DNA of 32,000 nt from the NCBI GenBank assembly GCA_043808785.1, contig JAZDEL010000002.1, positions 1 through 32,000 of the forward strand, written 5' to 3'. Positions within the stretch are counted from its first letter, which is position 1. Each line of letters opens with the position of its first letter. Shown here piece by piece: positions 1,968 through 27,372 of the stretch. Both the position numbers and the translations under genes were made by a program. The notes under the pieces were generated by a model that searched no databases, had not been told where the DNA came from, and saw only the letters and a list, made by a program, of their open reading frames with translations. The stretch comes from Candidatus Iainarchaeum sp. Its GTDB lineage: Archaea > Iainarchaeota > Iainarchaeia > Iainarchaeales > JAZDEL01.

Positions 1968-3065
1968 ATGGGGAAGCAAAGAAGCAGGAGAGTTGCATTC
2001 GCCGCGCTTGCGGCAGCCCTTATCCTGCTCCTCCTCGCAATCTCCGCAAGCGGTTACATAAATTACATAACCGTGCAGGGCAAGCTGAAAAACGGCAGCG
2101 GCTCAGCATATCTCTCGGGCGATTACGGCATGGTTTTCAAAATCTACGCAAGCGAGAACGCCGTAACCCCGCTTTACACCGAATCCCACACAGGCGCGAA
2201 TGCAGTAACCGTGAAGGACGGCTTCTTCAGCGCATCCCTCGGCACAATAACGCCTTTGGACCTTAACTTCCTGCAGAACTACTGGCTGGGCATAACTGTC
2301 GGGGCGGACAGCGAGATGAGCCCCAGGCAGCCTTTCATCCCGCAGCCTTATTCGATGTCCTCGCAGGTTGCGCTGGACGTAACCTGCTCCTCATGCGCAG
2401 GCGATGCCGAGATCGCCAATGCCCTGACGATTATAACGCCCAATGATGTGAACATCCTCGGCAGGGCGAATATTTACGACCTCAACATCGGGCGCACGAT
2501 TTCAGCCGGGGGCGCAAGGGGCACCTCCGCGGGCGACCTTAACATAGGCTCCTACCTGCACCTTGCGAAAACCTCGAAATGCATAATCGGCAGGAACTCC
2601 GCTTCATTGAGTTCCCCGATGCACTTATGGCTCTCCGCGCCCGAAACCCTGAGCAGGAACTCAATTCCCCCGGGGGCGAATGTTTTCGAAACTTCGGTAG
2701 AGGCAACCTCGGACGCAAACCTCTACTTCGCATTCCCCGTGCCTCACGGCGAACTTGGCTCCTCCGCGATTCTCGACAGCATAACAATCCAGTACTACGG
2801 CGCAACAGCAACGGACTACATCGACAGCGTTTACATAGAGCGCATAAACACGGGCACAAGCCTGAGCCTCACGCCCGTGATGAGCTACCACCCGAACATA
2901 ACAAGCGGCACAAGCAAAACCATAACCTCCGCAGACACCCCGAACCTGCCGCTCACCCTCGCCTCTGGCACGCCTTATCTCATAACCGTAGGCGTGGATG
3001 TTTCCCCGGCAACGCCGCAGCCTGTAACCATACACGGCTTCAAACTGGAGTACCACTTAGGGTGA
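1968..3065 (+). CDS. Secreted surface protein, paralog 2 of 3
   Basis: It starts 4 nt after the paralog 1 stop, and an aggGTGA SD overlaps that stop. The N-terminus MGKQRSRRVAFAALAAALILLLLAISASG is a signal peptide. The same conserved blocks as paralog 1 are present. Confidence 0.85.
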   Translation: MGKQRSRRVAFAALAAALILLLLAISASGYINYITVQGKLKNGSGSAYLSGDYGMVFKIYASENAVTPLYTESHTGANAVTVKDGFFSASLGTITPLDLNFLQNYWLGITVGADSEMSPRQPFIPQPYSMSSQVALDVTCSSCAGDAEIANALTIITPNDVNILGRANIYDLNIGRTISAGGARGTSAGDLNIGSYLHLAKTSKCIIGRNSASLSSPMHLWLSAPETLSRNSIPPGANVFETSVEATSDANLYFAFPVPHGELGSSAILDSITIQYYGATATDYIDSVYIERINTGTSLSLTPVMSYHPNITSGTSKTITSADTPNLPLTLASGTPYLITVGVDVSPATPQPVTIHGFKLEYHLG

Positions 3066-3072
3066 TGTGTAA

Positions 3073-4185
3073 ATGGCATGGATGAAAAATAAGGGCGCAA
3101 TTTCCTGCAGGGCAATACTGCAGCCGCTCCTTGTGCTTGCCCTGCTTACCTTGCTCTCAATCCCCATCGCCGCATACATAGGCGAGATGAACGCGCAGGG
3201 CAGGCTCTCCAATTCAACAGGCTTTGTTACAGGCGATTACAACATCGCGTTCACGATTTACAATGCCGAATCAGGGGGAAGCGCGCTCTGGACCGAAATA
3301 CACGACGGCGCAAACAAGGTGGGCGTGAACAACGGCTATTTCAGCACAACCCTCGGAACAATTAACCCTATAGAGGACCTTAACTTCCTGCAGGATTACT
3401 GGCTCGGGGTTAATGTCGAAAACACCGGTTACATGAGCCCGAGGCACAGGTTAACCCCTCTCCCCGGCTGCTTCACCTCGGAAACGGCGCAGGACGTGAA
3501 CTGCTCCTCGTGCATCTCCGACAGCGACGCCGACAACAGCCTCACAATTGCAACCCCGAACCAGGTTACCCTGCTCGGTTCCTCAAACTTCAGGGACACG
3601 AATGCCGTGCACTCACTGCGCACAGGCTCTGCAGCACAGCCCGCATCCGCAGGCGACGTTAACCTCTCAGGCAACCTTGTTATGCAGGCAGGCCAGGAAA
3701 TTGTGATGCCTGACCCCGAGGCAAGCGGGGCCTCAAGCATCTTTGTGGAGGCGGTCACAAACCTCCCGCAGTCCTCGGACGTTAACGGCAACGGAATTTC
3801 AAGGTCTTCGGTATGGCTCACCTCAGGCGGCATACTCCAGCTCGGCATGCCTGTGCATACCCTTGAGTACGGCGCAACACCCGTAATTGACAGGATAAAT
3901 GTTTACGATTACAACATGGGTGCAACTTTCTATGTCGACACAGTGCGCATAGAGAGCGTTAACCCCGACACCGGCACGCCCACAGTGCGCGCGATTTACA
4001 CAACAGACCAGACAAGCGGCACGGAGATAAACATGACCTCCGTAAATACAACAGGCTTCCCTTACAAGATGGTGAACGCGCCGCACCGCCTTGCCCTCGA
4101 TTTCAATGTTGCCGACATTAACCCGCACAGGTTTTACGTTTATGGGTATGAAATTCAGTACCATCTCGCGTACACAAGCAGGTGA
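3073..4185 (+). CDS. Secreted surface protein, paralog 3 of 3
   Basis: It starts 7 nt after the paralog 2 stop, preceded by a GGTGAT SD at 3060-3065. A hydrophobic N-terminal signal is present, along with the same conserved blocks (AQGRL, FTIY, HDG, NGYF, LNFLQDYWLGV, MSPR, CSSC, LTIATPN, AGDVNLSGNL, IQYHL). Confidence 0.85.
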   Translation: MAWMKNKGAISCRAILQPLLVLALLTLLSIPIAAYIGEMNAQGRLSNSTGFVTGDYNIAFTIYNAESGGSALWTEIHDGANKVGVNNGYFSTTLGTINPIEDLNFLQDYWLGVNVENTGYMSPRHRLTPLPGCFTSETAQDVNCSSCISDSDADNSLTIATPNQVTLLGSSNFRDTNAVHSLRTGSAAQPASAGDVNLSGNLVMQAGQEIVMPDPEASGASSIFVEAVTNLPQSSDVNGNGISRSSVWLTSGGILQLGMPVHTLEYGATPVIDRINVYDYNMGATFYVDTVRIESVNPDTGTPTVRAIYTTDQTSGTEINMTSVNTTGFPYKMVNAPHRLALDFNVADINPHRFYVYGYEIQYHLAYTSR

Positions 4186-4192
4186 GTTTTGA

Positions 4193-7100
4193 ATGGGCGG
4201 AATAAGCAAAGTGTGTTTTGTGTTTTTCCCCCTTGCCGTGGCACTTGCCTGCGCCGCACATGCCTCGGTCATGGGCAGCACCAACTACACGATGGAAGCG
4301 GATGTTTTCGCAGGCGGAACCGCAAGCAGCGCAACAGGCTACGACCTCAACGCGTTTTCCGTCGGCGAATTGGTTGCAGGCAACGCCTCCTCAGGCAGGT
4401 ATTTTGCCTATGTCGGGTTCCTGGCAACAGGCGCGGAAAAATGCAACGGCTGGGACGACGACCAGGACGGGAGCATTGACGAGGGCCCGTGGCCCGCGGA
4501 AACCTGCGGCAACGGCGTAGATGATGATTGCGACGGCAGCATTGATGAAGGGGCGTGCGGCACTGTTGCCATTGGCGGCACCGACGGCACGGCTGTGCGC
4601 CCCGCCTCTGGCTGCACATATTCCTGCGCAGGGCAGGAGGTATGCCCTGGCACGGTTTACGCCACAAGCGCGGGCGAGGTTTGCTGCAGCAGGCTGTGCA
4701 TTCCGGCAAGGGACCTGAACTATGCTGATGTGGCAATTACCTCCATGGGGCTCTCAAAGCACAACGCAAGTTCGGGCGACCTTGTGGAGTTCACCATAAA
4801 AATAAGGAACCGCGGCTCCGCAGCCTCAGGAAAGTTTGAAATCGCATTTTACATCCTGCGCGAACCAACGCAGGGAACCGCGGCTTTTTCCCCTGCAGCA
4901 GGCAAGCAAGCATACGCGCTTTTCGCGGATGAAAGCGAATTGGCAACATGGTCCGAGTTCGCCAGGTTCGAGGTTAACTCCCTTGCCCCGGGTGCGGAAA
5001 CAACAATTTCCGCGTCTTTCGACACCACAGGCTACAGCGGAGTCCTCGACTTGGGCGTGATGCTCGATTCTGAAAACTCAATAAGGGAAATAGACGAGGT
5101 CAACAACTGGGCGGACGCAAGCCTTGCAATAAGCGGCGGAATTACGCACCCTGAAATCTGCGGCAACAACATTGACGACGACCAGGACGGAATGGTTGAC
5201 GAGGATTGCACCGAAATCTGCGGCAACCTTATCGATGACGACCTTGACGGCAGGGTAGACGAGGGCTGCACAATCATATGCGACGGCAACATCTCTGGCG
5301 TTCCTCCGCAGCGCGAACTCGAGTGTGCGGCAGGCGGTGAAAAGCGGGCTCTTTTCAGCGACAAATACGTGAACGGCTTCTGCCTCGGCGGATGTGAAAA
5401 AACCCTCACGATTTATGCCGACGGTTCGGTCGGATATATCGAGAACATGTACGGCAATGTAAAGGAAATGCACGCAACCCTTACCTCGCAGGAACTGCAG
5501 CGCTTCAAGAACACAGTTGAAAACAGCGGCTTCCTCGCTCTCGACAAGGATTATTACACCTGCAGGGGCGCGCCAACAGACGCAGGCTCGCACACCTATG
5601 AATACACCAGCGGCGGCACCATAAAGAAAGCGGGCTTCTACTCGGCATGCACCTCGGAAATAGACCTCTCATTCCCGCGCGCATTCGGCATCATAGGCGC
5701 GGAACTCGGCACAATAAGCGGCATGCTTGAGGGCGGCGCCGCGCCCTCTGGAACCTCCCTTGCGGATATTTACGCCTGCACCGCAGATGCGGACTGCACC
5801 AACATACAGGACGGCTGCTGCGACTGCAACTACGGCGGCAGGAACACATCCATAAACAGGCGCTATGTGCAGTGCTGGCTCGAACACCTCGAGCAGGAAT
5901 TCACCTGCAGCGAAGCATTTTGCATAACCATGCCTTCGCTTGACCCGAGCTGTTTTGCGCTTCCAAAATGCGTTAACGGCCTCTGCACGAACGCTTCAGG
6001 TGATGCATGCTCCCGCATCACGCCCGAAACCTGCGGCAACAACATAGATGACGACCTTGACGGAATGGTTGACGAGGATTGCACCGAGGTTTGCACGGAC
6101 GGCATAGACAACGACCTCGACGGCAGGATTGACGAGGGCTGCGGCGAAATCTGCGACGACCATATCGACAACGACCTCGACGGCCTTACGGATGAGGATT
6201 GCTACACAATGCCGGAAATCTGCGGGGACGGGATAGACAACGATTTTGACGGCAGGATAGATGAAGGGTGCGGCGAGATATGCGGCAACAACATAGATGA
6301 CGACCTCGACGGCCTCATTGATGAGGAGTGCTATGAACTGCAGGAAATCTGCGGCAACAACTTGGATGACGACCACGACGGACTTGTGGACGAGCCGCCC
6401 TGCACTGACGGCGTGCCGGACAGCGATGATGACGGCCTTACCGATGAAGTGGAGCGCGGCATAGGCTCCGACCCGTATAATCCCGACACAGACTCAGACA
6501 GCCTGCGCGACGGAAAGGAAATAAACGAAACAGACACTAGCCCCATACTTTTTGACACAGACGAGGATAATGTCGGGGACGGCCAGGAATTCCTGTACGA
6601 CATAACCGACCCGGTAGACCCTATGAGCAACCTGCTCGAGCTTGTGATGAAGCCCGATGTCCCGGTAGGCGGGCAGCAGGAAGTTGGGGTAAAGCACCCC
6701 GCACTTGGCCTTATCCAAGGCATTTCCGCGCAGGTTATTTCCCCGTCCGGCGCGAAGCAGGGCTTCACTGCAGCGGATTCCAAAATAACCTTCACTGTCA
6801 AGGAGGAGGGAGTTTACACAGTGCTTGTAAGCAAGAAGGCATATTCCGCATCTGGCACATTTAATGGCGTGGGCACAGGCCTTGCAATAGGCGGCTATGC
6901 AGGCGACCTTGCCTCGCTTATATTCGGCTCCTCCCTGTTTGAAAACCCGTTGCTTGTCCTGCTCCTCTGCGTACTTTCAATTGCAGCATGCATCCTAGCA
7001 TACAGGAACAGTGCGGTGCTTTTCCGCGGGCGCGGCATGCCGCTTGCGGAAACCGCGGAGAGGAGGGAGAAGCTCAAGCGCGCGGGGGTAGCGGTGTTGT

Positions 7101-7249
7101 TCTTCATCGTGCCGCTGCTCATAAACAGGTTCCTTGACACCGGCTTGGCAATCCTTTTCGCTGTGCTCGAGATAGCGGTGATTTACGCCGCAACCTATAT
7201 GCTGCGCGCAAAAACCCGCGCAATGGAAGAGAAGCCGATAAGGGTTTAA
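4193..7249 (+). CDS. Giant membrane-anchored surface protein with MopE-like Cys/Asp repeats, a CARDB-like domain and thrombospondin type 3-like Asp repeats
   Basis: An aggtga SD lies 7 nt upstream and the N-terminus is a signal peptide (VCFVFFPLAVALACAAHA). About 10 copies of C(G/T/D)(N/D)x(I/V/L)D(D/N)D(x)DGxxDE(x)C occur in three clusters (about 4440-4555, 5155-5270 and 6020-6405). This resembles the 'putative metal-binding motif' repeat of MopE-type proteins. A CARDB-like segment is present (DVAITSM...FTIKIRNRGSAASG...NSLAPGAETTI...EVNNWA). An Asp-rich DSDDDGLTDE...DPYNPDTDSDS...FDTDEDNVGDG run resembles TSP3 calcium-binding repeats. Three C-terminal hydrophobic helices follow. Confidence 0.85.
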   Translation: MGGISKVCFVFFPLAVALACAAHASVMGSTNYTMEADVFAGGTASSATGYDLNAFSVGELVAGNASSGRYFAYVGFLATGAEKCNGWDDDQDGSIDEGPWPAETCGNGVDDDCDGSIDEGACGTVAIGGTDGTAVRPASGCTYSCAGQEVCPGTVYATSAGEVCCSRLCIPARDLNYADVAITSMGLSKHNASSGDLVEFTIKIRNRGSAASGKFEIAFYILREPTQGTAAFSPAAGKQAYALFADESELATWSEFARFEVNSLAPGAETTISASFDTTGYSGVLDLGVMLDSENSIREIDEVNNWADASLAISGGITHPEICGNNIDDDQDGMVDEDCTEICGNLIDDDLDGRVDEGCTIICDGNISGVPPQRELECAAGGEKRALFSDKYVNGFCLGGCEKTLTIYADGSVGYIENMYGNVKEMHATLTSQELQRFKNTVENSGFLALDKDYYTCRGAPTDAGSHTYEYTSGGTIKKAGFYSACTSEIDLSFPRAFGIIGAELGTISGMLEGGAAPSGTSLADIYACTADADCTNIQDGCCDCNYGGRNTSINRRYVQCWLEHLEQEFTCSEAFCITMPSLDPSCFALPKCVNGLCTNASGDACSRITPETCGNNIDDDLDGMVDEDCTEVCTDGIDNDLDGRIDEGCGEICDDHIDNDLDGLTDEDCYTMPEICGDGIDNDFDGRIDEGCGEICGNNIDDDLDGLIDEECYELQEICGNNLDDDHDGLVDEPPCTDGVPDSDDDGLTDEVERGIGSDPYNPDTDSDSLRDGKEINETDTSPILFDTDEDNVGDGQEFLYDITDPVDPMSNLLELVMKPDVPVGGQQEVGVKHPALGLIQGISAQVISPSGAKQGFTAADSKITFTVKEEGVYTVLVSKKAYSASGTFNGVGTGLAIGGYAGDLASLIFGSSLFENPLLVLLLCVLSIAACILAYRNSAVLFRGRGMPLAETAERREKLKRAGVAVLFFIVPLLINRFLDTGLAILFAVLEIAVIYAATYMLRAKTRAMEEKPIRV

Positions 7250-8486: not shown

Positions 8487-8957
8487 CTACAATAACGCCT
8501 TGCGGGTTTTTAATGGTTTTCTTGGCTGCATCCGACGTGGAACTTCCAGTTTGAGCTTACCCTGCCTGAAGCCACGGGTAGTGTGAATGCAACCTGTCTG
8601 CACAATTTTCAAATTCCCCCAATTAAGGTTTGCCATCTTGAAGAATTCCTTAGGGAAACTCCTTGCGCAGGCATCTTGGTATACGCCGTATGCCTCACCC
8701 TTTGCATTCGGCGAAATTTTGAGTCCCCCCTTGCTAATCTGTGAAATAACTTCTTCAGCCACACCGCTCCACACCCCGTGTTTTGCGCTGACCGCTACCC
8801 TGTTTTTCAGCATGCGCCGCAAAAACAATTCCAAATCATTCTCGGCTTTTTCCATTTCGCTTTTCCTATTCTGGTCGACCTTCCATGCAGGTTCGTTTGG
8901 GTTATTCGGCGGTGCCTGTTTGCCCGCGATTCCCCGCCTAACTGCCGCCTCAAACAA
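8487..8957 (-). CDS. Hypothetical protein; may be the C-terminal part of a gene interrupted by an in-frame TAG
   Basis: The ORF starts only at a TTG, two codons after the TAG that ends ORF 8961-9164, and it is in the same frame. No family was recognised. Confidence 0.45.
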   Translation of the reverse strand: MFEAAVRRGIAGKQAPPNNPNEPAWKVDQNRKSEMEKAENDLELFLRRMLKNRVAVSAKHGVWSGVAEEVISQISKGGLKISPNAKGEAYGVYQDACARSFPKEFFKMANLNWGNLKIVQTGCIHTTRGFRQGKLKLEVPRRMQPRKPLKTRKALL

Positions 8958-8960
8958 TTC

Positions 8961-9164
8961 CTACCTTGTTGGTATTCCGCTTTTCACAAGCACGACAAGC
9001 GAGTTCGGCTCGTTCTGCGCCACATTTTTTATAAGCGGATTGAGCACTGTTTCTATTAATGCATTCGTCTGTCTCGCTGCCTGTTGTGGCGTTCTTGTCG
9101 TTGCGATGAACGTATGCGCAGGATGCGTTATGAAATAAATCTTGTCTATTATTTTTTCAGCCAC
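8961..9164 (-). CDS. Hypothetical protein; may be the N-terminal part of a gene interrupted by an in-frame TAG
   Basis: The product is 67 aa (MAEKIIDKIYFITHPAHTFIATT...SLVVLVKSGIPTR) and ends at TAG 8961-8963. It looks like part of an alpha/beta domain rather than a complete protein. Confidence 0.45.
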   Translation of the reverse strand: MAEKIIDKIYFITHPAHTFIATTRTPQQAARQTNALIETVLNPLIKNVAQNEPNSLVVLVKSGIPTR

Positions 9165-9181
9165 ATTTCCGCCTCAGTTGT

Positions 9182-9294
9182 CCGCCCGCCCCAAGGCGGG
9201 CACTTGCAGTTTTCGCCAGCCTTCGCAGGCAGCGTGATTTTTGCGAAGCAAAAATCCTTCTTTTTGCTAACTTTTTCTTGCAAAGAAAAAGTTA
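9182..9294. repeat. Mosaic palindromic repeat locus R1 (modules A+B+C)
   Basis: Module A is gcccgccccaaggcgggcacttgcagttttcgcca, also found at 27283-27318. Module B is gcgtgatttttgcgaagcaaaaatccttctttttgc at 9232-9267. Module C is the hairpin aactttttcttgcaaagaaaaagtt at 9269-9293, ending 1 nt from the tRNA 3' end. Confidence 0.85.
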
Positions 9295-9431
9295 TGCGCC
9301 CGCCGGGACTCGAACCCGGACGAAGAGCTTGCCCCAACAACCGCAACCTGCCTTGTGTTTCTTTTGTCAACTTTTCTTTCTTAAAGAAAAGTTGTTGGAG
9401 GGCTCTCATGCTGCCATTACACCACGGACGC
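9295..9431 (-). tRNA. tRNA-Gly (anticodon TCC) with a roughly 66-nt intron at 37/38 (intron 9330-9395)
   Basis: A manual cloverleaf was built. The acceptor is GCGTCCG/CGGGCGC plus A73, the D arm GTGT-AATGGCA-GCAT, the anticodon stem AGAGC/GCTCT, the variable loop 4 nt (TCGT), and the T arm CCGGG-TTCGAGT-CCCGG. The spliced loop is CCTCCAA. G1-C72, C2-G71, G3-C70, A73 and a 4-nt variable loop fit Gly. A 3-nt CAA bulge next to the anticodon stem and a 4-bp CCUC/GGGG helix fit a relaxed bulge-helix-bulge motif. The TATA box aatatattaata lies at 9461-9472. Caveat: position 33 would be C. Confidence 0.65.
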
Positions 9432-9525: not shown

Positions 9526-10245
9526 ATGGCCAAAAATGCGAAAAACGCTAAAAATGCAGGTTCGGGCAAAGGCGCGGTTTCCGCAAAAAAACAAAGGCCA
9601 AAAACCCGCGCGCCGCGGGTTAAGGGGTTTTTCCTTGTTATTGACGGCATTGACGGCTCGGGGAAGGGCACAATCCTTTCGCTCCTGCATGATTGGTTCC
9701 TTGCGCAGGGGGTTCCGCCGGGTAGGCTCCTGCTTACCGCCGAACCGACTTCAGGCGCCTATGGCAGGCGCATAAGGGAACTCCTCCGTTCCGGCGCCGA
9801 CCCTCACGCCCGGGCGCGCGAACTGCTGAACCTTTACATAAAGGACAGGAAGGAGCACATTTCCCGCGCAATTCTGCCAGCGCTTTCCGCTGGAAAAATA
9901 ATCCTGTGCGACCGCTACAAATACAGCACAATTGCATACCAGTCCGCGCAGGGTTTGGATAAGGGCAAACTGATTTCCCTGCACAAAAAAATGCCGGTGC
10001 CGAACCTTGCCTTGATTTTGGATTTGCCTGTTGAGGAAGCGCTTTCCCGCATCTCCTCCGACAGCAGCCGCAGCGGCAAGGACGTTTTCGAGCGCTCCGC
10101 GTTCCTTGAGAAAGTGCGCGCCAATTTCCTCGCGCTTAAGGAGGAACTGCCGAAGGAGAAAATCGCGGTTATTGACGCCTCGGGAACCAAAGAGGAAGTT
10201 TTTGGGCGCGTGCTCGCGGCAGTGAAGAAAAGTGCCGCAATTTAA
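9526..10245 (+). CDS. tmk: Thymidylate kinase with a basic N-terminal extension of about 31 aa
   Basis: The P-loop region is FFLVIDGIDGSGKGT. The DRY-type motif CDRYKYSTIAYQ and a typical C-terminal half are present. No start codon lies nearer the P-loop, and V32 (GTT) sits where Tmk proteins normally begin. Confidence 0.85.
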   Translation: MAKNAKNAKNAGSGKGAVSAKKQRPKTRAPRVKGFFLVIDGIDGSGKGTILSLLHDWFLAQGVPPGRLLLTAEPTSGAYGRRIRELLRSGADPHARARELLNLYIKDRKEHISRAILPALSAGKIILCDRYKYSTIAYQSAQGLDKGKLISLHKKMPVPNLALILDLPVEEALSRISSDSSRSGKDVFERSAFLEKVRANFLALKEELPKEKIAVIDASGTKEEVFGRVLAAVKKSAAI

Positions 10246-10258
10246 TTGCCCGCATTAA

Positions 10259-10348
10259 GCGTGATTTTCGCCGAAGGCGAAAATCCTTCTTTTTGCTTGC
10301 TTTTGTTGACTTTTCGGAAGCGGGCTATGCCCGCGCTCCTAAAAGTCA
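10259..10348. repeat. Mosaic palindromic repeat locus R2 (module B plus a C-like hairpin)
   Basis: Module B is gcgtgattttcgccgaaggcgaaaatccttctttttgc at 10259-10296. It is followed by gacttttcggaagcgggctatgcccgcgctcctaaaagtc, a hairpin that abuts the tRNA 3' end. Confidence 0.8.
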
Positions 10349-10526
10349 TGCGACTGCCGGGAATCGAACCCGGGTCTGAACCTTGTTGCAAGAACCTCCT
10401 GTGAGGCTTCGGAACCGCAGGTTCCGCCGCCCTGCAGAACCCGCAAGGGTTCTGCCGCAAGGGAGGTATCGGAACCGTAGGTTCTGATGTGGCAAGGTCC
10501 AAGCCTAACCGCTAGCCTACAGTCGC
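10349..10526 (-). tRNA. tRNA-Gly (anticodon GCC) with a 106-nt intron at 37/38 (intron 10384-10489)
   Basis: The acceptor is GCGACTG/CAGTCGC plus A73, the D arm GGCT-AGCGGTTA-GGCT, the anticodon stem GGACC/GGTTC, the variable loop AGAC, and the T arm CCGGG-TTCGATT-CCCGG. The spliced loop is TTGCCAA. A 3' CAA bulge and a perfect 4-bp central helix UUGC/GCAA are present, and the 5' bulge is enlarged (relaxed BHB). The A/T box ttttaaaa at 10558-10565 lies about 32-39 nt upstream. Confidence 0.75.
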
Positions 10527-11985: not shown

Positions 11986-12150
11986 CGGCGGTTCAGCCTT
12001 TTCGGAGCGTGGGGCTTCGCTATTTTGCCTTGCCCTATTTTGCCTCTTGGCAAAATGGGCGCAATTGGCTGTAGCCAATTAGCGCGGCAAAATGCGCGCA
12101 TTCGGCTCAAGCCGAATAGCGTCAGCCCCACTTCCAAAAGCCTGGGGAAA
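11986..12150. repeat. Mosaic palindromic repeat locus R5 (modules F, E, G)
   Basis: Module F is gcggttcagccttttc at 11988-12003, identical to 27186-27201. Module E at 12037-12085 is attttgcctcttggcaaaatgggcgcaattggctgtagccaattagcgc, matching 26228-26277. The segment ccacttccaaaag at 12128-12140 is the reverse complement of 27320-27332. Confidence 0.8.
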
Positions 12151-12583: not shown

Positions 12584-12613
12584 GCCATCCCTCCTGATTT
12601 TTTTTGTGTTGAA

Positions 12614-12676
12614 GCGTGATTTTCGCGAAGCGAAAATCCTTCTTTTTGCAAACTTTTTCTTTCCAAGAAAAAGTTT
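12614..12676. repeat. Mosaic palindromic repeat locus R3 (modules B+C)
   Basis: Module B is gcgtgattttcgcgaagcgaaaatccttctttttgc at 12614-12649. Module C is aactttttctttccaagaaaaagtt at 12651-12675, ending 1 nt from the tRNA-Val 3' end. Confidence 0.85.
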
Positions 12677-12749
12677 TGGGCCGGGGCGGAATCGGACCGC
12701 CGATTTCTGCCTTGTAAAGGCAGCGTCATAGCCGCTAGACCACCGGCCC
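12677..12749 (-). tRNA. tRNA-Val (anticodon TAC), intronless
   Basis: The minus strand reads GGGCCGG-TG-GTCTAGCGGCTATGAC-G-CTGCC-TTTACAA-GGCAG-AAATC-GGCGG-TCCGATT-CCGCC-CCGGCCC-A. This is a perfect 7-bp acceptor with anticodon loop TT-TAC-AA. No CCA is encoded. The TATA box tttaaa at 12777-12782 lies 28-33 nt upstream. Confidence 0.9.
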
Positions 12750-26143: not shown

Positions 26144-26311
26144 GCTTTTGATTTTGCGAAGCAAAATCCTTCTTTTTGTCAACTTCCCGTTTTGGCAAAA
26201 GCCAAAAGGGCCCTTTTGGACCAGCCTATTTTGGCTCACGTCAAAATGGGCGCAGTTGGGCAATGCCCAACTAGCGCAGCCCAAAACGGGTTTCTTGCAA
26301 AGAAAAAGTTG
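26144..26311. repeat. Mosaic palindromic repeat locus R4 (modules B, split C, D, E)
   Basis: A 5'-shortened module B lies at 26146-26178. The 18-nt perfect palindrome ccaaaagggcccttttgg at 26202-26219 is identical to 27231-27248. Module E lies at 26228-26277. The right half of module C, tttcttgcaaagaaaaagttg, lies at 26291-26311. The arms cccgttttgg (26186-26195) and ccaaaacggg (26281-26290) bracket the inner modules. Confidence 0.85.
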
Positions 26312-26365
26312 CAGTGGAAATCAGCCCTGCGCGCGTTTTTAAACCGTGCCAAGGCATAATTTTTC

Positions 26366-27149: not shown

Positions 27150-27185
27150 AGCATTAAATGCTACATAGTGCTTTTTAAAAAACCC

Positions 27186-27372
27186 GCGGTTCAGCCTTTT
27201 CTTATAAAGAAACCCGTTTTGGGCTAAAGCCCAAAAGGGCCCTTTTGGCGCAAGCCAAAACGGGAGGCTGGCGAAAAGAACAGCCCGCCTCTAGGCGGGC
27301 ACTCGCAGTTTTCGCCAACCTTTTGGAAGTGGGTTTGAGCCCAAGCGAAAACCCACGCTCCGAAAAGGTTGC
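27186..27372. repeat. Mosaic palindromic repeat locus R6 (modules F, D, A, G)
   Basis: Module F lies at 27186-27201, the 18-nt palindrome at 27231-27248, and module A (gcccgcctctaggcgggcactcgcagttttcgcca) at 27283-27318. The segment cttttggaagtgg lies at 27320-27332. The hairpin gtgggtttgagcccaagcgaaaacccac follows. Confidence 0.85.

Follow-up and report, generated by a model that had tools for sequence, protein, structure and literature searches.

The origin of archaeal tRNA introns has long been unresolved, the discussion opposing intron-early and intron-late views and including a transposition for which no mechanism is known. These introns carry at their splice sites a bulge-helix-bulge (BHB) motif, composed of two 3-nt bulges with a 4-bp helix between them; they are excised by the splicing endonuclease EndA and the exons are joined by the ligase RtcB. 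Split tRNA genes are found in Nanoarchaeum equitans and Caldivirga. Here, we analyzed a 32-kb stretch of DNA (hereafter the window) from an uncultured archaeon of the lineage Candidatus Diapherotrites (DPANN), in which a gene for tRNA-Gly(UCC) is interrupted by 66 nt. We consider it likely, from sequence comparison, that this segment is a genuine BHB-type intron at position 37/38, in which at least 40 nt were copied from a palindromic element flanking tRNA genes, expanding an earlier intron. Transposition of tRNA introns between genes was reported in Thermoproteales, with an unknown mechanism (Fujishima et al. 2010, as related in PMC4090602). Intron gain through mobile elements integrating at tRNA genes was also proposed (Sugahara et al. 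2012, PMC3293823). In split tRNAs, the trailer and the leader jointly act as an opened intron (PMC4090602, PMC3218864). In DPANN, L3-loop splicing endonucleases are reported to accompany a more extensive disruption of tRNA genes, and such inserts were tied to a broad substrate specificity (PMC5829648). No EndA gene was detected by a Pfam scan of the window ORFs.

The Gly(UCC) intron resembles other archaeal BHB introns by its 37/38 position, the type of gene, a 3' end predicted to pair with loop positions 32-35 in a 4-bp helix with a 3-nt 3' bulge, and the presence of introns in orthologues. Unlike them, it has a relaxed 5' side, with a hairpin straight after the splice site in the junction, and a sequence traceable to a flanking repeat, a trait not known from such introns. 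As in the transposition related for Thermoproteales, related introns are found in non-orthologous tRNAs, namely the Gly(GCC) gene of the window and the Gly(UCC) gene of a relative (L067). However, as far as that account goes, the Gly(UCC) intron of the window differs in that its kin are trailers and intergenic repeats, not introns, and in its DPANN host; the other intron-bearing tRNA of the window carries no similar intron. As in the proposed gain by integrating elements, a DNA-level event would have altered the intron content in a short evolutionary span, and duplicated tRNA-Val 3' ends in relatives recall att-site remnants. In contrast to that proposal, no recombinase, att duplication or large insertion was found at the Gly(UCC) intron, and the donor resembles either a palindromic repeat of small size or the trailer of the gene itself. 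A fused or near-split gene would resemble this locus, where a trailer-like, terminator-type hairpin stands right after the 5' exon. Unlike split tRNA genes, this one is contiguous, with just 66 nt between two exons that share a strand and no evident promoter for the 3' half, and its trailer-like part has no complementarity to the leader. A limited literature search found no report of a contiguous tRNA gene with an intron matching the 3' trailer element of its own gene family.

The tRNA-Gly(UCC) gene is one of three tRNA genes of the window, all on the - strand, together with tRNA-Gly(GCC) and tRNA-Val(UAC) (Table 1). It was overlooked by ARAGORN with default settings and by Rfam scans of the window at the gathering threshold. 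With relaxed filters, the Rfam tRNA model scored 41.3 bits for 9295-9431 (gathering score 29) and paired the anticodon stem AGAGC/GCUCU, with 71 nt interrupting it. Deletion of 9330-9395 gives a 71-nt sequence called tRNA-Gly(tcc) by ARAGORN, which aligns column by column with intronless (L066) or spliced orthologues. This comparison shows the identity of the tRNA and its exon structure, and the 66-nt intron predicted in an earlier note on this DNA is thus very probably real. In intron mode, ARAGORN took the unspliced gene for a tRNA-Trp(CCA) with an intron at 38/39; this call was rejected because the spliced Gly(UCC) form aligns column by column with the orthologues. An assembly artefact (collapsed repeat) was also ruled out, the intron copy being identical to no other copy. 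No second tRNA-Gly(UCC) was seen within the 32 kb. Several tRNA genes of this block were missed or miscalled by standard tools.

The same palindromic module stands behind each of the three tRNA genes, at most 2 nt from their 3' ends. In the tRNA sense, it comprises hairpin C (AACTTTTTCTT..AAGAAAAAGTT), module B (GCAAAAAGAAGGA), hairpin A (TTTT[T]GC..GCAAAA) and TCACGCT. The 16-mer AAAATCCTTCTTTTTG occurs four times exactly in the window, where 0.8 chance matches are expected even with up to three mismatches; three of these copies lie behind tRNAs and the remaining one in 26150-26311. The modules behind tRNA-Val and tRNA-Gly(UCC) share 92% identity over 63 nt, and hairpin C behind tRNA-Gly(GCC) has a stem GACTTTT/AAAAGTC around a 26-nt GC-rich loop. 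In 26150-26311, hairpin C is interrupted by a 105-nt insert (~26186-26290) belonging to a second palindromic family. The dispersed copies fall into two subfamilies, this C-B-A set and an older C'-B'-GC set with 27192-27300, 9179-9230 and the trailers of the relatives L011 and L064 as members. The copy at 27192-27300 reads hairpin C' CAGCCTTTTCTT..AAGAAA, a 52-nt insert (~27213-27264), AGGCTG, GCGAAAAGAACA and a GC hairpin, and the distal trailer of tRNA-Gly(UCC) was recovered by nhmmer at 9184-9247 (E = 6.8e-06). All copies begin with CA(A/G)C and their 3' ends are variable. Perfect AT-rich palindromes with 12-bp arms are found only three times in the 32 kb: in the intron, in the Gly(UCC) trailer and in the Val trailer. 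They are the longest hairpins of the window, all 27 nt long with the arm core AACTTTT(T)CTT.

The intron starts, 1 nt past the 5' splice site, with such a hairpin, followed by the A-rich spacer ACAAAAGAAACA. The L011 trailer of the orthologous tRNA-Gly(UCC) (CAGCCTTTCTTTTATAAAGAAAGGTTGGCGAAAGAAACAG...) matches it at 29 of 34 positions without gaps (z = 10.4, 0/5000 shuffles), a match that grows to 33/40 ungapped when intron base 1 is set on the discriminator base followed by the trailer (0/3000 shuffles). The copy at 27192-27300, with its insert removed, was likewise never equalled (0/5000 shuffles). A profile of the older subfamily, run over ~126 kb of Diapherotrites DNA, places the intron first among non-members, aligned to model positions 1-40 with E = 0.009. 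When the L011 and L064 trailers are joined into one composite reference, which fuses two organisms, the whole intron aligns to it at 50 of 64 positions with two gaps (0/3000 shuffles), and GGCAGGTTGCGGTTG in its 3' part is identical at 13/15 positions to the distal L064 trailer, in conserved order (intron bases 44-58). The alignment score of intron and flank is 43 on the same strand vs 29 on the opposite strand, and in every copy the A-rich spacer comes after the hairpin when read in the tRNA sense. Since the trailers of relatives and 27192-27300 match beyond shuffles, the homology of the intron segment to the flank element is shown at the level of these alignments. BLASTN-short over all loci gave nothing additional; leaders as a source of the intron 3' part showed no likeness by inspection, and no such pair was among the top all-vs-all pairs.

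The earlier note had described the intron as carrying a copy of the neighboring intergenic module, in the same orientation. The strings that it quoted are where it placed them, apart from a 1-nt slip (tcctt starts at 9255, not 9256), the orientation is as proposed, and the similarity exceeds that expected from T-rich chance. The content needs to be corrected: the intron carries hairpin C and the spacer, without the 16-mer and without hairpin A, and the spacer is closer to the L011/L064 trailers and 27192-27300 than to the adjacent trailer. By sequence, the intron copy is of the older subfamily (hairpin C' + GCGAAAGAAACA), not the adjacent C-B-A module. The repeat-like segment is real, but its match to the adjacent trailer, with which it had been equated, is modest and other copies match it far better. 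No module copy was found in the Gly(GCC) intron, the other tRNA intron of the window, where a search for the module had been proposed.

Relatives were collected via the synteny of Tmk (thymidylate kinase), the window protein being 100% identical to a protein from a Candidatus Diapherotrites metagenome-assembled genome (MAG). The block tRNA-Gly(UCC) - tmk - tRNA-Gly(GCC) ... tRNA-Val is syntenic across eight relatives, the two closest found being L011 (Tmk identity ~57-60%) and L064 (61-63%). A neighbor-joining tree of Tmk clusters the window with these two short-intron relatives, which is weak evidence because it relies on a single gene. Comparison of the block showed an intron-length polymorphism among syntenic orthologues (Table 1), and the shorter or intronless alleles anticipated by the earlier note do exist (L066 and L068 have no intron, and those of L011 and L064 measure 14 and 15 nt). 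Its link between the repeat family and intron gain or expansion holds for the change in size and not for gain: because the syntenic orthologues already have introns of 14-68 nt at 37/38, expansion rather than de novo gain is favored.

The starting state would most likely have been a short intron of ~14-15 nt, as in the sister lineages. In the lineage of the window, a copy of the donor element would have been placed in the anticodon loop, expanding the existing intron, so that at least its first 40 nt, and possibly the whole of it, would be a paralogous DNA copy. The donor would be a 12-bp T-rich/A-rich hairpin with an A-rich spacer and a GC-rich tail, usually adjoining tRNA 3' ends, including that of the orthologous Gly(UCC) gene of the closest relatives found, and present at a few other intergenic sites. 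Two routes are plausible. The gene's trailer, located 100 nt away, could have supplied the copy by ectopic recombination or by a local duplication, such as one of the 3' exon with the trailer and subsequent loss of the proximal exon copy; alternatively, a dispersed copy could have inserted. The inserted palindrome would fold on itself right after the 5' splice site and is probably just tolerated in the intron.

Table 1. Coordinates of the features in the window and tRNA-Gly introns of the syntenic block in the window and its relatives
Feature	Positions	Strand	Description
tRNA-Gly(UCC), one intron	9295..9431	-	Rfam tRNA score; spliced form called tRNA-Gly(tcc), aligned to orthologues
5' exon, 36 nt	9396..9431	-	Ends ...CCCTCCA at position 37
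3' exon, 35 nt	9295..9329	-	
Intron, 66 nt, canonical 37/38	9330..9395	-	ACAACTTTTCTTTAAGAAAGAAAAGTTGACAAAAGAAACACAAGGCAGGTTGCGGTTGTTGGGGCA; comparison with orthologues and BHB-constrained fold
Intron hairpin, C-type	9368..9394	-	CAACTTTTCTTT aag AAAGAAAAGTTG, perfect 12-bp arms
A-rich intron spacer	9356..9367	-	ACAAAAGAAACA; counterparts GGCGAAAGAAACA (L011 trailer) and GCGAAAAGAACA (27271-27282)
3' part of intron	9330..9355	-	GGGG opposite anticodon-loop positions 32-35; includes GGCAGGTTGCGGTTG
Trailer module C-B-A adjoining tRNA-Gly(UCC) 3' end	9231..9294	-	Then TCACGCT
Hairpin C of Gly(UCC) trailer	9268..9294	-	
Module B 16-mer of Gly(UCC) trailer	9251..9266	-	
Hairpin A of Gly(UCC) trailer	9236..9256	-	
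Distal Gly(UCC) trailer	9179..9230	-	GGCGAAAACTGCAAGT + GC hairpin GCCCGCC..GGCGGGC; orthologous to L011/L064 trailers, 27271-27316
tRNA-Gly(GCC)	10349..10526	-	
C-B-A module adjoining tRNA-Gly(GCC) 3' end	10258..10348	-	
tRNA-Val(UAC)	12677..12749	-	
C-B-A module adjoining tRNA-Val(UAC) 3' end	12613..12676	-	
C-B-A copy away from tRNAs	26150..26311	-	Between divergent PTH2 and PIN genes
Dispersed older-subfamily copy	27192..27300	+	Upstream of NurA/HerA; matches intron
Window, tRNA-Gly introns			Gly(UCC) 66 nt; Gly(GCC) 106 nt
L011, tRNA-Gly introns			Gly(UCC) 14 nt; Gly(GCC) not on contig
L064, tRNA-Gly introns			Gly(UCC) 15 nt; Gly(GCC) not on contig
L012, tRNA-Gly introns			Gly(UCC) 53 nt + second, D-arm intron; Gly(GCC) intronless
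L066, tRNA-Gly introns			Gly(UCC) intronless; Gly(GCC) 35 nt
L067, tRNA-Gly introns			Gly(UCC) 68 nt; Gly(GCC) intronless
L068, tRNA-Gly introns			Gly(UCC) intronless; Gly(GCC) intronless
L069, tRNA-Gly introns			Gly(UCC) 50 nt; Gly(GCC) intronless
L065, tRNA-Gly introns			No Gly(UCC) gene seen on contig; Gly(GCC) intronless

To evaluate splicing, the pre-tRNA was folded with the splice sites unpaired and the CCUC/GGGG helix enforced, which gave -48.2 kcal/mol, 2.7 above the minimum free energy of -50.9. In this constrained fold, the 4-bp CCUC/GGGG helix is accompanied by a bulge of 3 nt (CA/A) on the 3' side. As the intron GGGG still pairs with loop positions 32-35, the 3' splice site lies in a canonical 3-nt bulge, and the gene probably stays spliceable, as predicted from the fold and the orthologues. 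In L069, a canonical hBHBh' structure was obtained by hand pairing; the constrained fold left AACC/GGUU unpaired.

Several points weigh against a spliceable intron copied from the flank. The match of the intron to its own trailer is modest (Smith-Waterman score 29, equalled in 32/5000 dinucleotide shuffles), as is its rank with a profile of the three window trailer modules (top non-family match in the window, E = 0.021). The 3' part alone is only weakly similar to the flank (29/5000), and the sequences compared are T/A-rich and of low complexity, from a single MAG and with sequence as the only data. No direct repeat indicating a target-site duplication was seen around the intron copy or the trailer copies, no transposase or recombinase among the 20 window ORFs scanned against Pfam, and no leftover exon fragment near the intron copy. 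In the gene itself, the 5' site (CA/A) lies in the junction between helix and hairpin, in a relaxed or bulge-helix-loop form without a strict 3-nt bulge. Position 33 (window 9400, + coordinate; anticodon loop CCUCCAA) is C in the window gene alone and U in the 5/5 orthologues examined; U33 being near-universal in tRNAs, the gene is possibly not fully functional. C33 could reflect a relaxed function, a consensus error of the MAG or a real variant, and it strengthens the pairing to the intron GGGG. The gene could then be a pseudogene, with an anticodon loop inactivated by a dispersed palindrome and 66 nt that were never spliced, a reading to which C33, the loose 5' site and the failure to detect the gene under Rfam default filters all lend themselves. 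We regard it as very unlikely: the four stems are all intact, the 41.3 bits are on par with the 41.5 of the adjacent Gly(GCC) gene, the insertion falls exactly at 37/38, the intron site of the orthologues, the GGGG pairing and the canonical 3' bulge are retained, and the syntenic position is kept with no other tRNA-Gly(UCC) seen in the 32 kb.

The direction of copying could also be the reverse, as the earlier note allowed, an older hairpin intron, alone or with the 3' exon, having seeded trailers and intergenic sites. A T/A-rich hairpin straight after the 5' splice site is indeed found in three lineages from both Tmk clades (window, L012 and L069), and because the more distant L012 and L069 share it, the hairpin may be an old intron feature followed by a later exchange between intron and trailer, which also counts against copying from the flank. 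Moreover, this block does show intron movement from one gene to another (window Gly(GCC) vs L067 Gly(UCC), z = 7.2, 0/5000), and intron transposition is documented, with a mechanism unknown (PMC4090602). Yet the window intron is far nearer to the L011 trailer and 27192-27300 than to the L069 and L012 introns (z = 2.1), many flank copies stand against a single intron copy, and the flank copies include a GC hairpin and B/A modules, of which the intron has no or only degenerate counterparts, which makes this direction unlikely. Convergence or chance would be expected if the h' helix of the intron and the terminator of the trailer both simply need a stable U-rich/A-rich hairpin. The weak match to the gene's own trailer agrees with this, as do the T/A-rich palindromes of varied sequence found beside tRNA genes genome-wide, including the 5' leaders of L066-L069. 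But the 33/40 ungapped match runs through the non-palindromic spacer and was never equalled in 3000-5000 shuffles, the independent copy at 27192-27300 matches too, and collinearity goes on, weakly, in the 3' part; this reading is already disfavored and we give it hardly any weight. Finally, the hairpin and its A-rich tail could be a functional small RNA or protein-binding module, which RNase Z would release from trailers and the splicing endonuclease from introns such as this one. Between genomes, the element keeps 82-85% identity where the Tmk proteins are just ~57-60% identical, compensatory changes in its arms preserve the hairpin (T-A, A-T and C-G at the first pair; A-T/G-C; T-A/C-G), it always adjoins a processing site, and TATA-like boxes lie upstream of the non-tRNA copies (26312-26345 on the - strand, 27165-27180 on the + strand, and L017). 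Nevertheless, a DNA-level element would conserve its palindrome equally, the T5 of the first arm should end transcription before most of the module, and neither C/D or H/ACA boxes by reading nor an Rfam match was found, so that such a role appears improbable. C/D-box sRNAs are known in archaeal tRNA-Trp introns or as co-transcripts of tRNAs. The 66-nt intron contains neither a C box (RUGAUGA) nor a D box (CUGA), has no match to Rfam snoRNAs and no TATA-like box; a C/D-box or H/ACA guide RNA was ruled out by the lack of boxes and of a pseudouridylation pocket.

Copying of the flank element into an existing intron, which we favor, would make this locus a concrete case in which the sequence origin of an archaeal tRNA intron can be proposed, and a new form of intron dynamics, as judged from one MAG and short low-complexity sequences. 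The donor is traceable: sister lineages with introns of 14-15 nt have, right behind their orthologous gene, the element that the intron matches, and intron expansion is for this reason testable by population metagenomics and closer genomes. More tentatively, and with the odds rather against it, T/A-rich palindromes at tRNA ends could be an active DNA-level source of tRNA introns in these DPANN archaea. If so, trailer duplication or insertion would bring a copy into the anticodon loop and so generate a spliceable BHB intron or lengthen one, which would provide a long-missing mechanism for archaeal intron gain and "transposition". With a terminator-type trailer behind its 5' exon, such a gene could also have taken a first step to a split tRNA gene. 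The block varies by genome in intron presence, length and sequence, with one intron common to different isoacceptors in different genomes, which suggests that the disruption of tRNA genes in DPANN could usefully be followed in this natural setting.

A bidirectional oligo-T terminator is the most economical reading of the trailer hairpin, because the trailer module has T5 runs on both strands and lies between convergent genes. A T5 run starts 5 nt past the 3' end of tRNA-Gly(UCC) and 4 nt past that of tRNA-Val, and tRNA-Gly(GCC) has T4. Hairpin C of the trailers thus most plausibly acts as a putative terminator for both strands; its copy in the intron has T4 at most. The family recalls bacterial repetitive extragenic palindromes and interspersed mosaic elements (REP/BIME) and miniature inverted-repeat transposable elements (MITEs): these, too, are short imperfect palindromes that recur many times between genes, frequently at the 3' ends of genes, and that show subfamilies and nested insertions. 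It differs from them by its archaeal genome, by the lack of target-site duplications and of a REP-associated tyrosine transposase (RAYT) or other transposase in the window, and by its strong tie to tRNA gene ends, which is unusual.

The introns and ends of tRNA genes in the block show further rearrangements. In L012, the tRNA-Gly(UCC) gene (1968-2131, - strand) has two introns, of ~39 nt in the D arm near 22/23 and of 53 nt at 37/38. It was overlooked by ARAGORN intron mode and Rfam, and its hand-spliced form is called tRNA-Gly(tcc). The L012 and L069 introns also open with a T/A-rich hairpin. The 106-nt Gly(GCC) intron of the window contains three GAACC..GGTTC hairpins, and its 5' part (TCAGAACC..GGTTCCGA.ACCTCC) matches the intron of the Gly(UCC) gene of L067 (gene at 9701-9840, - strand; z = 7.2, 0/5000 shuffles). 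The syntenic Gly(GCC) gene is intronless in L012, L067, L068 and L069 and has an unrelated 35-nt intron in L066, and the sequences suggest that an intron moved between the two Gly genes on either side of tmk. In L066 (15540-15702), L067 (18740-18901) and L069 (9180-9350), all on the - strand, ~65-70 nt separate tRNA-Val from a 20-nt duplicate of its 3' end, which spans T loop to discriminator and is identical at 20/20 positions in L066 and L067 and 18/20 in L069. The downstream piece includes a hairpin GAAAC(C)TTT(T)GGCAAA(A)G(G)TTTC. The duplicate looks like an att-site remnant or a duplication of "3' exon plus trailer", and is a possible intermediate in which the trailer could become an intron once the proximal exon copy is lost. 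T/A-rich palindromes with 13-19-bp arms, such as CGAGCTTTTTCTTTTTCTTcccAAGAAAAAGAAAAAGGTCG, adjoin tRNA 5' ends in the other clade and overlap base +1 (L066 15702-15735, L067 9840-9872 and 11246-11274, L068 5229-5270, L069 9350-9390); they may serve as promoter, leader or insulator. The side of the tRNA thus differs by clade, the palindromes being at 3' ends in the clade of the window and at 5' ends in the other.

The second palindromic family (CCCGTTTTGGGC..GCCCAAAAGGG / CCCTTTTGGC..GCCAAAACGGG) is found at ~26186-26290, ~27213-27264 and 12034-12059. In two module copies, its inserts lie at the identical point of hairpin C, after AAGAAA, and the insert at 26186 bears a further nested insert of ~60 nt. 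The nested insertions at these two sites show repeated insertion or copying of such small elements. A similar insert, oppositely oriented, interrupts hairpin C of the L064 trailer (z ~8). Upstream of the NurA-HerA genes, 27165-27370 (+ strand) is a composite of nested palindromes, in the order TATA-like TTTTTAAAAAA, hairpin C' with its insert, GCGAAAAGAACA, GC hairpin, ACTCGCAGTTTTCGCC and a second hairpin AACCTTTTGG..CCGAAAAGGTT with its own insert. The non-tRNA copies (this one, 26150-26311 on the - strand and L017) each lie just upstream of a co-oriented gene.

A search of genome contigs with hairpin A and the 16-mer gave 10 loci, of which only L006 is module-like, the others being T-rich chance matches. 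The same search gave 49 loci in metagenome contigs, with real copies only in L017/L024 and possibly in L057/L061, and three matches in viral contigs, all due to chance. L006 (3127-3183) and L017 (5912-5964, the same as L024) have the exact 16-mer in the architecture hairpin A - B - hairpin C. L006 is labelled as a Methanosarcinales MAG, and the DNA around the L017/L024 copy is visibly AT-rich. In L017, an ORF starts 19 nt past the end of the module, which has TTTATAAAT directly before hairpin C.

In the window, a 183-aa ORF (8587-9138, + strand) next to the trailer is convergent with tRNA-Gly(UCC). It has no Pfam match and no homologue among 5.8 billion proteins, itself included, and may not be a real gene or may be lineage-specific. 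Further upstream, 4193-7249 (+ strand) encodes a 1018-aa protein with CARDB and MopE-like metal-binding motifs, and its coding DNA contains about ten diverged repeats of 60-69 nt (GAAATCTGCGGCAAC..GACGACGAC..GACGG).

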